From a virus (lineage: Duplodnaviria > Heunggongvirae > Uroviricota > Caudoviricetes), in the IMG/VR virus record IMGVR_UViG_2939521961_000017: a stretch of 61,958 nt of DNA; one strand, written 5' to 3'. The first letter of the stretch is position 1; the number at the start of each line of letters is the position of its first letter. This document shows positions 27,001 to 30,000 of this stretch, piece by piece. The position numbers are program-made.

Positions 27001-30000
27001 TCAAGATTAAAGAAGATAAGCGTAAGGCTGCGAGAGGTGAATAATGTCGCCGTCATTACGCAAGGCTGTTGCAGCTGCTATTGGTGGTGGGGCTGTTGCC
27101 ATAGCGTCTGTGCTCATCACTGGTCCAGGTGGTAACGATGGTCTGGAAGGTGTCAGCTACATACCATACAAAGATATCGTTGGCGTATGGACTGTATGTC
27201 ACGGACACACCGGAAAAGACATCATGCCCGGTAAAACGTATACCGAAGCAGAATGCAAAGCCCTCCTGAATAAAGACCTTGCCACGGTCGCCAGACAAAT
27301 TAACCCGTACATCAACGTCGATATACCGGAAACAACGCGCGGCGCTCTTTACTCGTTCGTTTACAACGTGGGCGCTGGCAATTTCAGAACATCGACGCTT
27401 CTTCGCAAAATAAACCAGGGCGATATCAAAGGCGCATGTGATCAGCTACGGCGCTGGACATACGCTGGCGGTAAGCAATGGAAAGGGCTGATGACTCGCC
27501 GCGAGATTGAGCGTGAAGTCTGTTTGTGGGGGCAACAATGAGCAGGGTAACCGTTATTATCTCCGCTCTGGTTATCTGCATTATCGCCTGCCAGTCATGG
27601 GCTGTTAATCATTACCGTGATAACGCCATTACCTACAAAGCGCAACGCGATAAAAAAGCCAGTGAGCTGAAGCTGGCGAACGTGACAATTACTGATATGC
27701 AGGTACGCCAGCGTGATGTCGCTGCACTTGATGCCAGATACTCGAGGGAATTAGCCGATGCGAGAGCTGAAAATGAAACTCTGCGTGCTGATGTTGCCGC
27801 TGGTCGTAAGCGCCTGCGCATCAACGCCAACTGTCCAGGCTCCTTGCGTAAAGCCCCCATCACCTCCGGCGTGGGTAATGCAACCGGTCCCCGACTGGCA
27901 GAAGCCGCTGAACGGGATTATTTCATCCTCAGAGAACGGCTGATGGCAATGCAGAAGCAACTGGAAGGAGCACAGGAATATATCCGTACCCAGTGTATAC
28001 CGTGATGTTTTGTTATGAATATGTTACTGGTAACGTTAAGGTAATTTAACAAAGAGTCAGTTCCGGACTTTATAGTGTGCTCAGTTCATGGCCAAAAACG
28101 ATTTCTGTGATAAATATTTTGAATATTATTTACAGGTAAATGGAGTGGGGCGCATGGATAGAAATATTACAATAGAGTATGAAGTATATGCCCGTATTGT
28201 ATGGGCAGAGAAGGCAAAAACACGGTAATTCCGTGTGTTGCCATGATACCTGATTGGCAGAATAGTTGTTTGGTTTTGAGTATATAGTCAGCGTTTTTTG
28301 TTCAGTAATTGCCCCCTCAAAAAATAATAAAATAAGGTGATTATTTTTGTTTATTATTTAGTTTTTTTTGTGTGTTGTTTTATTGTTTTTGCGTGGTTTG
28401 TTTTTTATTGTTATTTCATTAAGGGAAGGTAAATTCAGGATGGCAGTCTGTAGATAATCGGAGGTCACTTATGCTACATGATCACGTGGCAGAATGTCTG
28501 GAGAAAAAAGGACTGTACCGGAGAGCAGCTGAACGATGGGCAAAAGTGATGGTACAGCTAAGTGATGACCAGAAAAGAAAAGTGGCGGCACAGAAACGAG
28601 CAGAGTGTTTGCGTAAGGCGCGCCGGACTCCGGTTTCACCGGTGAACCTGACCGAAATAAAACAAGCGGTCAACAGACTACATTCTGAGTTGGGAATGGG
28701 ATTTGAAGAGCGGCGGGTATTCCGACGATATAAAGGGACAGGAGAACAGAATACGTCCGGAAACGCGCGGTCAAAAAAATGCTAAAAAATATCTGAGAGA
28801 GTTATTGCCTGTTACCATAAGAAAAAGCGACTTTAGTGGTCGCTTTTTGTGTCATATATAAGTCGTTTAAGTAAACCTGTCTGAACAGGTGCTCTGGTCG
28901 TGTTTGTCTTTGTTGGGTACAAATTGAGAATATTTTTCATTAATTAATCTTCTTCTGCAGGCTTCAATAACCCACGCTGAAAAATTACCTGAACCTTTCT
29001 GGTCAAGAGCGATGTTAATTTGTTCAATCATCTGGTTTGGAAATCGGATGTTGCGGGTTGTTGTTCTGCGGGGCCGGTTTTTCGATGACATTTTCTTTCC
29101 TCTGGTGACAAGCTATATGGCGAGGATTTTACATGGCTGTGCTTCGTACGTTACCGGGCAGAATCAAAACTCTGAACACCCGGCGGGTGAATGTCCTGAA
29201 GGGTGAACAGCGTCGTGTCAGTGGCAGTGCACGTGTTTCCCTCAAGCGTCATATCTGGCTCAGGGATGCCGGGCAGTGCTGTCTCTGTGGTCGTGTGGTT
29301 GACCTCTGTGACAGTGAACTCGATCACCGAATTGCACTTCAGTTCGGTGGTGGTAATGAGGAGACGAATCTCTGGACGCTCTGTACCGAATGCCATCGAC
29401 AAAAGTCTGCTCGTGAAGTGGCGGGTGGTATGCCGGACCCGACGCTGCCGGAGGTGTCCGGAGGTCATGGCAGGGCAGACGATATCATCGGACTGTGACC
29501 CGCCCCGGGGGGGGGGGATCATCCGGCGAAAAAAACGATCGCCCCGGACACCGCCCCCCGTCTCATGCAGAGAAAAAATTCCTGTTTCAGGCCAGTTAAC
29601 ATGTTAACTGGCTGCCCGGGCATTTTTTCGGTTTTTATCTTTATTATTCAGTTTGTTGTGCGAAAAAAATGTTAACTGGCTTTTTCAGCAAATGTTAACC
29701 AGGCAGCAGTTAACATTTGCGGCATGAGACGCCGGGAAAAATGGGCTGAACCATACCCGGCTGAGTGCGTTATGGACCCGGGAGGAGGCTGTGCTGACAA
29801 CGCAAAAACGAAAATTTGCGCTGGCGCTCATGTCCGGGAAAAACAAAACAGCGTCAGCCATTGCCGCCGGTTATTCGGCGAAGACCGCCAGGGTTAAAGG
29901 CTCGCAGCTGGCAAAAGATCCGGAGGTGCTTGCGTTTATAGCCCGTAAACAATGCGAGACGGTGGAGGTGGATGAGGTTCCTGTTTACCGGCAGAAAAAA

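Follow-up and report, generated by a model that had tools for sequence, protein, structure and literature searches.

The window analysed here, a 61,958-nucleotide (nt) stretch of DNA recorded in IMG/VR as IMGVR_UViG_2939521961_000017, is a lambdoid prophage adjoining ssrA (transfer-messenger RNA at 60899-61261). An ATG-initiated open reading frame (ORF) on its plus strand, 28471..28785, encodes a 104-amino-acid (aa) protein containing the motif GLYRRAAERW. A preliminary description had called this gene PerC-like and placed it on a prophage, a setting that its surroundings bear out. Judged by its nucleotide sequence, however, the gene goes beyond PerC-like and is pchA itself, and the region around it holds the pchA cassette known from enterohaemorrhagic E. 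coli (EHEC) and related E. coli that carry the enterocyte effacement locus (LEE), lodged in its usual lambdoid cargo slot. We hold it to be highly probable that the region is explained as a whole by this cassette, the known switch from Pch proteins to LEE, translational control through the Shine–Dalgarno (SD) sequence and the small RNA (sRNA) DicF, a regulatory T/G-rich tract upstream of the gene and, in the early region, an ortholog of yfdN.

As pchA is an annotated and experimentally characterised virulence regulator whose family, location and control are already known, the analysis adds nothing new on what the gene is, which family it belongs to or how it acts. What is modestly new is descriptive only: a hypervariable tract that conserves composition, a polymorphism in the length of its T-runs and a rare pairing with yfdN. 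The features that carry the argument are the following.

28006..28860, plus strand: pch 'moron' cassette of ~855 bp, with the Rz lysis gene on its left and the YlcI/HNH/terminase module on its right
28300..28420, plus strand: T/G-rich tract (core 28336-28412), extreme in composition, a divergence hotspot and part of the published PpchA fragment
28460..28464, plus strand: SD sequence of pchA, GGAGG, read from the sequence; pairing probability of its outer G residues 0.8-0.94
28471..28785, plus strand: coding sequence of pchA, 104 aa; PerC family, group 1 (PchABC), from the Pfam PerC match and nucleotide identity to Sakai pchA
28549..28576, plus strand: anti-SD stretch (28559-28570) and predicted DicF pairing site, from folds and a local duplex

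pchA, its cassette and its translational control

The 104-aa protein matches the Pfam family PerC (PF06069; gathering cutoff 22.6 bits) over model positions 1-89 of 90 with 149.3 bits (E 3.8e-44), and its length lies within the ~90-105 aa of single-domain PerC-family proteins. Its coding sequence is identical at 315 of 315 nt to pchA of E. coli O157:H7 Sakai (ECs_1091), differing from Sakai pchB at one position (nt 16) and from pchC at three (nt 16, 172 and 183). These are exactly the positions that separate the 315-bp group 1 pch genes (PMC5931665). The 465 nt upstream are of the pchA type, with six differences from Sakai pchA. Because the coding sequence is identical, the differences from pchB and pchC fall at the published positions and the upstream DNA is of pchA type, we assign the gene to pchA. 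For exactly this protein, UniRef gives the name 'PchABC family transcriptional regulator' and RefSeq the name 'PerC family transcriptional regulator'. Thus, the earlier reading of the GLYRRAAERW protein as a PerC/Pch protein holds over the full length of the Pfam model and at every nucleotide of Sakai pchA. Alignment, the check proposed with that reading, upholds the similarity to pchA, pchB and pchC at the nucleotide level and to PchD and PchE in the core. A sequence-based search for relatives of solved structure found none, and a single-sequence AlphaFold2 model of PchA, with a predicted local distance difference test (pLDDT) score of 51, was inadequate for a fold search.

PchA, PchB and PchC activate ler/LEE1 (PMC5931665). 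These proteins bind A+T-rich, H-NS-covered DNA and remodel the H-NS/StpA/Hha complex, and at further LEE and effector promoters they co-activate together with Ler (PMC4764244); the function and mechanism of PchA are treated in PMC4764244, PMC5931665 and PMC4456613. The suggestion that the gene encodes a LEE-type activator is therefore matched by experiment, as LEE1/ler activation has been shown for the identical protein (PMC5931665, PMC4764244). For the identical protein, binding to A+T-rich, H-NS-covered DNA is established at the LEE1 promoter and at many effector genes; remodelling of H-NS/StpA/Hha allows ler to be transcribed, and Ler together with Pch goes on to activate type III secretion and the effectors that depend on it. 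Inputs reported to act on pchA comprise Lrp/butyrate, LrhA, LeuO, sigma-S/NtrC, and SOS or prophage induction. Since pchA is a master switch of attaching-and-effacing virulence, knowing which prophage carries it is useful for strain typing.

The founder of PF06069, PerC of enteropathogenic E. coli (EPEC), shares the LEE1/ler target with PchA (PMC4764244). EPEC perC is plasmid-borne, lying in the perABC operon of pEAF, and is dispensable for LEE under many conditions, whereas the pch genes are stand-alone prophage cassettes that are required for LEE expression in EHEC (PMC4764244).

Both edges of the cassette can be placed by comparison. Homology to a pch-less Stx2a phage ends at the Rz stop codon, which marks the left edge, and a plasmid-borne copy diverges right after the hairpin 3′ of pch, which marks the right. 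The gene order is holin, lysozyme, Rz, pchA, a YlcI/YnfO gene, HNH endonuclease and terminase, so that pchA lies on a lambdoid prophage between Rz and the packaging genes, as group 1 pch genes do; Sakai pchA, pchB and pchC occupy this same slot on Sp4, Sp11 and Sp14. The window copy shares with Sakai pchA its coding sequence, upstream type, downstream hairpin and post-Rz position. However, Sakai pchA is on Sp4, and the window copy is on another backbone at another integration site, adjacent to ssrA and with espK, espN and nleL as further cargo. Unlike its Sakai counterpart, it also has an intact YlcI/HNH/terminase module on its 3′ side and an IS600 in the upstream holin gene.

A 557-bp block of tract plus gene is present in 673 of 5,426 complete E. 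coli genomes, at one to five copies each, and at 99% identity or more in 659 records, with carriers that include O157:H7, O55:H7, O145, O103, O111 and O80. Among deposited phage genomes, pch occurs in one 1.5-kb fragment only. On the 66-kb plasmid pOkiPb01711_1 (locus L003, 1810-4712), an IS-flanked pchA cassette retains an Rz remnant and is also bordered by the effector genes nleH (a pseudogene) and espS, and thus the cassette also moves outside prophages. Plasmid-borne pch cassettes were encountered in 15 places in the collection.

According to Melson & Kendall 2019 (as related in PMC7769764 and PMC7873438), an anti-SD stretch within the pchA coding sequence inhibits translation of the mRNA, and DicF lifts this self-inhibition; the DicF control reportedly depends on Hfq (PMC7308464). 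Computation on the window sequence reproduces the published control. In both the minimum-free-energy and the centroid fold, the SD and AUG (28460-28471) are predicted to pair with 28559-28570 with a pair probability of ~0.6; the fold has z -3.2 relative to shuffles, SD pairing probability reaches 0.94, and coding nt 158-161 offer a second candidate partner. The DicF of Sakai Sp11, whose identity Rfam RF00039 supports with 75 bits, is predicted to form, through its nt 1-25, a duplex of -25.1 kcal/mol with coding nt 79-106 (28549-28576), which covers the anti-SD. This pairing comes from a local duplex calculation, full-length RNAduplex being uninformative here as it ignores intramolecular structure. 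The site is the same in pchB, pchC and the Escherichia albertii homolog. On this model, the SD and start codon would be held by a stretch ~90 nt into the coding sequence, and the prophage-encoded DicF would free the ribosome-binding site by pairing over that stretch. A search of the window for dicF itself found none.

The T/G-rich tract upstream of pchA

The ~120 bp of T/G-rich DNA reported earlier at 28300..28420 were placed accurately, this being the most T-rich 121 bp of the window. The tract consists of 55% T, 16% G, 21% A and 7% C (77% A+T). Of the 123,676 segments of 121 bp from both strands, just 12 reach this T content, and every one of them overlaps the tract. T+G content reaches its whole-window maximum, 78%, at 28333 and amounts to 90% in the core (28336-28412), and the 3′ end of the tract lies ~50 nt before the pchA ATG. 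A native pchA promoter fragment that responds to Lrp and butyrate has been described, and its primers map to window positions 27970 and 28785 (PMC7279287). The tract is therefore inside the PpchA fragment.

The tract is also the divergence hotspot of the cassette. Relative to the window, pchB differs by 28% in the tract and 0.3% in the coding sequence, pchC by 9.4% and 1.0%, and the divergent copy of strain A25, a monkey isolate, by 30% and 6%. Among 85 copies from IMG/VR and genomes, 51 distinct variants of the 470-nt upstream region were found versus 8 coding variants, and upstream variability peaks at 28321-28400. The upstream variants resolve into three allelic types (A-, B- and C-like), together with mosaics and one copy with a 40-nt deletion; one A/B mosaic upstream region was seen among the 85 related loci (L012-L093). 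Changes in T-run length recur in every type. The run at 28362-28369, T8 in the window, has seven T residues (T7) in both Sakai pchB and pchC and ranges from T6 to T8 within each of the three types.

Despite this variation, T content stays at 51-57% and C at ~6% across tract copies, the A25 outlier excepted. Upstream of an E. albertii pch homolog (91% identical protein), 144 nt are different yet A+T-rich and T-skewed, with conservation to the window only in the SD-proximal ~50 nt. Thus, the tract diverges at roughly 10-100 times the rate of the coding sequence while retaining its T bias, and it appears that its composition is maintained rather than its sequence. This retained composition agrees with the differential regulation that has been published for pchA and pchB and is stated in the title of Honda et al. 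2009.

A skeptical reading of the same variation is that the tract is functionless, a slippage-prone A+T-rich filler of the kind usual in horizontally acquired DNA, whose variability reflects relaxed constraint. The highest divergence in the cassette, the frequent changes in homopolymer length and the 40-nt deletion are what such filler would display, and a 77%-identical homolog from Escherichia sp. has upstream DNA with only 36% T. However, the T bias is strand-specific and persists in all three of the diverged allelic types of E. coli and, in part, in E. albertii, which neutral decay would not be expected to preserve. Furthermore, a fragment that contains the tract confers regulated expression (PMC7279287), and pchA and pchB, which differ almost only in the tract, are differentially regulated according to the title of Honda et al. 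2009. We consider a functionless tract unlikely.

A coding role is hardly credible at all. A GTG-initiated ORF at 28337..28432 would specify a very hydrophobic peptide of 31 aa, but hydrophobic codons arise automatically in T-rich DNA and the ORF has no SD. We rejected this peptide because its frame is broken by stops or frameshifts in the pchB, pchC and A25 copies.

A reading at the RNA level deserves more attention, although we regard it as doubtful. If transcription starts upstream of the tract (for example, near 28273), the mRNA would carry ~200 nt of U/G-rich leader, as a ligand of Hfq or of further RNA-binding proteins or as a modulator of stability and translation. U-rich stretches are Hfq ligands, which favours such a leader, as do the position of the best promoter-like site (TTGCCA-17-AATAGT, 28238-28266) upstream of the tract, the complementarity of A-rich 28318-28335 to several of the U-rich segments, and the reported Hfq dependence of DicF control of pchA (PMC7308464). 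Nevertheless, the promoter-like site scores 10.4 bits, under the 90th percentile of background (11.0), and folding of 411 nt with the tract included yields no gain in stability over shuffles (z +0.56), so that a defined structure of the tract-containing leader was set aside as a candidate. Neither the gathering threshold nor a limit of E ≤ 1 brought up any Rfam match in or around the tract, and a known RNA family was likewise set aside. The high divergence, with composition alone retained, also argues against a defined RNA structure.

Because composition appears to be kept rather than sequence, a platform for nucleoid-associated proteins fits better than a defined RNA element. We therefore favour the view that the tract constitutes the variable, A+T-rich heart of the regulatory region upstream of pchA and that its role is most likely exerted as DNA, in the form of a platform where nucleoid-associated regulators bind. 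Reported effects on pchA exist for Lrp and LrhA; H-NS is a plausible candidate. Divergence of the tract among pchA, pchB and pchC would then probably lie behind their reported differential regulation, and a fast-evolving, T-biased tract would offer a simple handle on how near-identical pch paralogs come to be regulated differently.

Evidence on curvature and H-NS binding is mixed. The 77% A+T content and a predicted bend at 28319 speak for the earlier proposal of a curved, silencer-bound tract; the poor phasing of the T-runs and the lack of an H-NS nucleation motif speak against it. In a wedge model whose profile serves for ranking inside the window only, the bend peak at the 5′ edge of the tract (28319), where T6, A6, A4 and T5 runs alternate, reaches the 99.9th percentile of the window, and the T/G core is unremarkable. 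Tandem Repeats Finder reports a degenerate 21-nt period in the tract (3.3 copies, 74% matches).

Several observations count against the DNA-level platform and the wider account of pchA control. The T-runs of the core are only weakly phased, being spaced 19.5, 14, 8.5 and 15.5 bp apart with a weak autocorrelation at lags of 10-11 bp. Prediction of H-NS binding, which had been proposed as a check, found no high-affinity nucleation motif (TCGATAAATT-like, with up to two mismatches) in 28229-28470, and the count of TCGATAAATT-like motifs across the window is not above chance. Occupancy data for H-NS, Lrp or LrhA at the tract were not found, and the tables covered from one chromatin immunoprecipitation–microarray (ChIP-chip) study do not list the pch loci. 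Among sigma-70 candidates in the intergenic region, none exceeds the window background, and text searches for a mapped pchA transcription start and for Lrp or LrhA footprints led to reviews only, so that the tract may be situated either upstream of the promoter or within a transcribed U-rich leader. In addition, the window does not contain LEE; that the host has it is inferred from the effector cargo, together with matching genomes of Shiga toxin-producing E. coli (STEC). Finally, the IS600 in the holin gene may change read-through transcription into pch in this particular prophage.

A bolder proposal, to which we give little credence, treats the tract as a composition-constrained, hypervariable module whose allelic types and slippage-prone T-runs tune or stochastically switch pch copies, and adds that the yfdN-type protein described below might join the same H-NS circuit. 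If true, strains with one to five pch copies would hold a diversified and partly phase-variable set of LEE master switches.

The yfdN-type early gene and its PerC core

A second PerC-type domain had been proposed at the C terminus of an early gene of the prophage.

17557..18051, plus strand: early gene of yfdN type, 164 aa; three-helix module at the N terminus, then a linker and a C-terminal PerC core (~17854-18009)

The proposal is confirmed. The ORF has GLYRRAATVW near its C terminus, and aa 100-151 match PF06069 positions 5-56 of 90 with 36.3 bits (E 7e-9), above the Pfam cutoff; chance is far from explaining either of the two PerC matches. The core aligns to that of PchA with 41% identity over 44 aa. 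However, the protein departs from the small single-domain form of the family, as it carries an extra N-terminal module, matches the first two thirds of the PerC model and has no equivalent of the C-terminal half of Pch proteins. It matches phrog_1324 (E 1.5e-77), and its N-terminal module has a weak match to a MarR-type PHROG. In a single-sequence AlphaFold2 model (overall pLDDT 63), two modules are predicted at aa 4-50 and 92-144 with pLDDT 70-84. When the Protein Data Bank (PDB) was searched with this model by Foldseek, nothing came up below E 0.79, the weak hits being helical hairpins of TPR or MIT type.

In RefSeq the gene goes under the name yfdN, and its neighbours are an O-like replication gene and a Dam-type methyltransferase gene. 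The product is identical at 155 of 162 residues (96%) to K-12 YfdN (b2357) of the cryptic prophage CPS-53, where the same O-like gene lies upstream and the same methyltransferase gene downstream; those K-12 neighbours are truncated remnants, whereas the early region of the window is intact. By sequence, then, 17557..18051 is the ortholog of K-12 yfdN and encodes a widespread phage early-region protein that joins an N-terminal helical module to a PerC core. Of the 5,426 complete genomes, 2,547 have the gene, K-12 and further LEE-negative strains among them. The co-linear block from yfdN to pchA seen in the window occurs in 59 genomes only. Both yfdN and pchA had already been annotated and published, which the preliminary description did not recognise.

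Could the yfdN-type protein be a second LEE regulator, whether activator or repressor, acting through its PerC core? The above-cutoff match of the core would allow it, other PerC-family proteins can repress LEE (PMC11773190) or, in the case of PchE, curli (PMC6265319), and the host of a LEE1 reporter had yfdN deleted as a precaution (PMC5931665). Weighing against such a role are the limited similarity to PchA together with the missing C-terminal half, and the presence of the gene in nearly half of the genomes, LEE-negative strains included. The single-domain homologs are also instructive. PchD (ECs_1388, 89 aa) and PchE (ECs_1588, 90 aa), from which the yfdN-type protein is distinct in architecture, reside on SpLE1 and on Sp7, an element that resembles a phage-inducible chromosomal island (PICI). 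They are 29-40% identical to PchA and share the PerC-family core A-x2-LE-x2-G-x2-RRA-x3-W ... R-x6-R-x2-C, but they have little or no effect on ler (PMC5931665), and PchE represses curli (PMC6265319). By analogy with these two proteins, the yfdN-type protein is probably not a LEE activator, and we judge a regulatory role at LEE of either sign to be quite improbable.

The PerC core also bears a weak likeness to the ANR (AraC negative regulator, Aar) family of small helical regulators, which act through H-NS and AraC-type proteins. This resemblance between PerC and ANR has already been remarked (PMC11773190, 2025). Against the NCBIfam model NF033650 (curated cutoff 32 bits), the yfdN-type protein scores 23.4 bits and PchA 13.6 bits, so that by this score neither is a member. 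The sub-threshold matches nonetheless fall over the same region of both PerC cores (17854-18009 and 28489-28620).

Further features of the cassette and the prophage

Between Rz and the tract, and again downstream of pchA, the cassette holds three smaller features.

28088..28228, plus strand: 46-aa ORF, match to phrog_2157 (E 2.3e-37); coding status uncertain
28213..28240, either strand: stable hairpin between the 46-aa ORF and the tract; -16.7 kcal/mol with z -6.3 (plus strand), -14.8 kcal/mol (minus strand)
28822..28848, either strand: terminator-like hairpin 3′ of pchA; -14.7 (plus) and -12.1 (minus) kcal/mol, z -4.9 and -4.2

The 46-aa ORF is intact in all six aligned copies and is not annotated in RefSeq; nine of its ten substitutions are nonsynonymous. 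The hairpin that follows it has a T-run after the stem on the minus strand only, and a terminator scan reports a site on that strand alone. The hairpin 3′ of pchA is flanked by an A-run and a T-run, can be read both ways and is kept in all copies.

Upstream of the lysis genes, an insertion sequence interrupts the holin.

25595..26856, minus strand: IS600, ~20 nt into a class II holin gene, between the late-gene region and pch

The window corresponds to the PV0838 prophage plus a 1,262-bp insertion at the holin, and the insertion matches IS600 of other records; the element is missing from the otherwise identical PV0838 prophage and present in NIID080884. It parts the late-gene region from the lysis-pch module and probably renders the prophage lysis-defective. 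The carrier of pchA here is a defective, ssrA-linked phage that also bears genes for the type III secretion effectors nleL, espN and espK at ~51.6-59.7 kb (~51641-59721). This cargo lies at the tail-fibre end of the prophage, beside ssrA and together with a DinI-like pseudogene. Prophages identical or nearly identical to the window are carried by human and bovine STEC isolates.

Other RNA features lie elsewhere in the window. The Rfam families STnc100 (plus strand) and AgvB (minus strand), an anti-GcvB sRNA, match back to back at 22857-23125, just 3′ of a trio of transfer RNAs for Met(CAT), Arg(TCG) and Arg(TCT) (22496-22747) and past the antiterminator gene. In the early region, near a gene for a Rha-family regulator, adjacent matches to isrK (an Hfq-binding RNA) and to C4 antisense RNA at 15733-15921 suggest an antisense immunity or anti-Q module of the P1/P7 type. 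At the opposite end of the window from ssrA, positions 1-7700 hold a pair of genes for an ATP-binding protein and a receiver-domain protein, a DUF4760 gene and an integrase gene split by a second IS600 (~4965-6121), and this segment may be a separate island or defence locus beside the prophage integrase.

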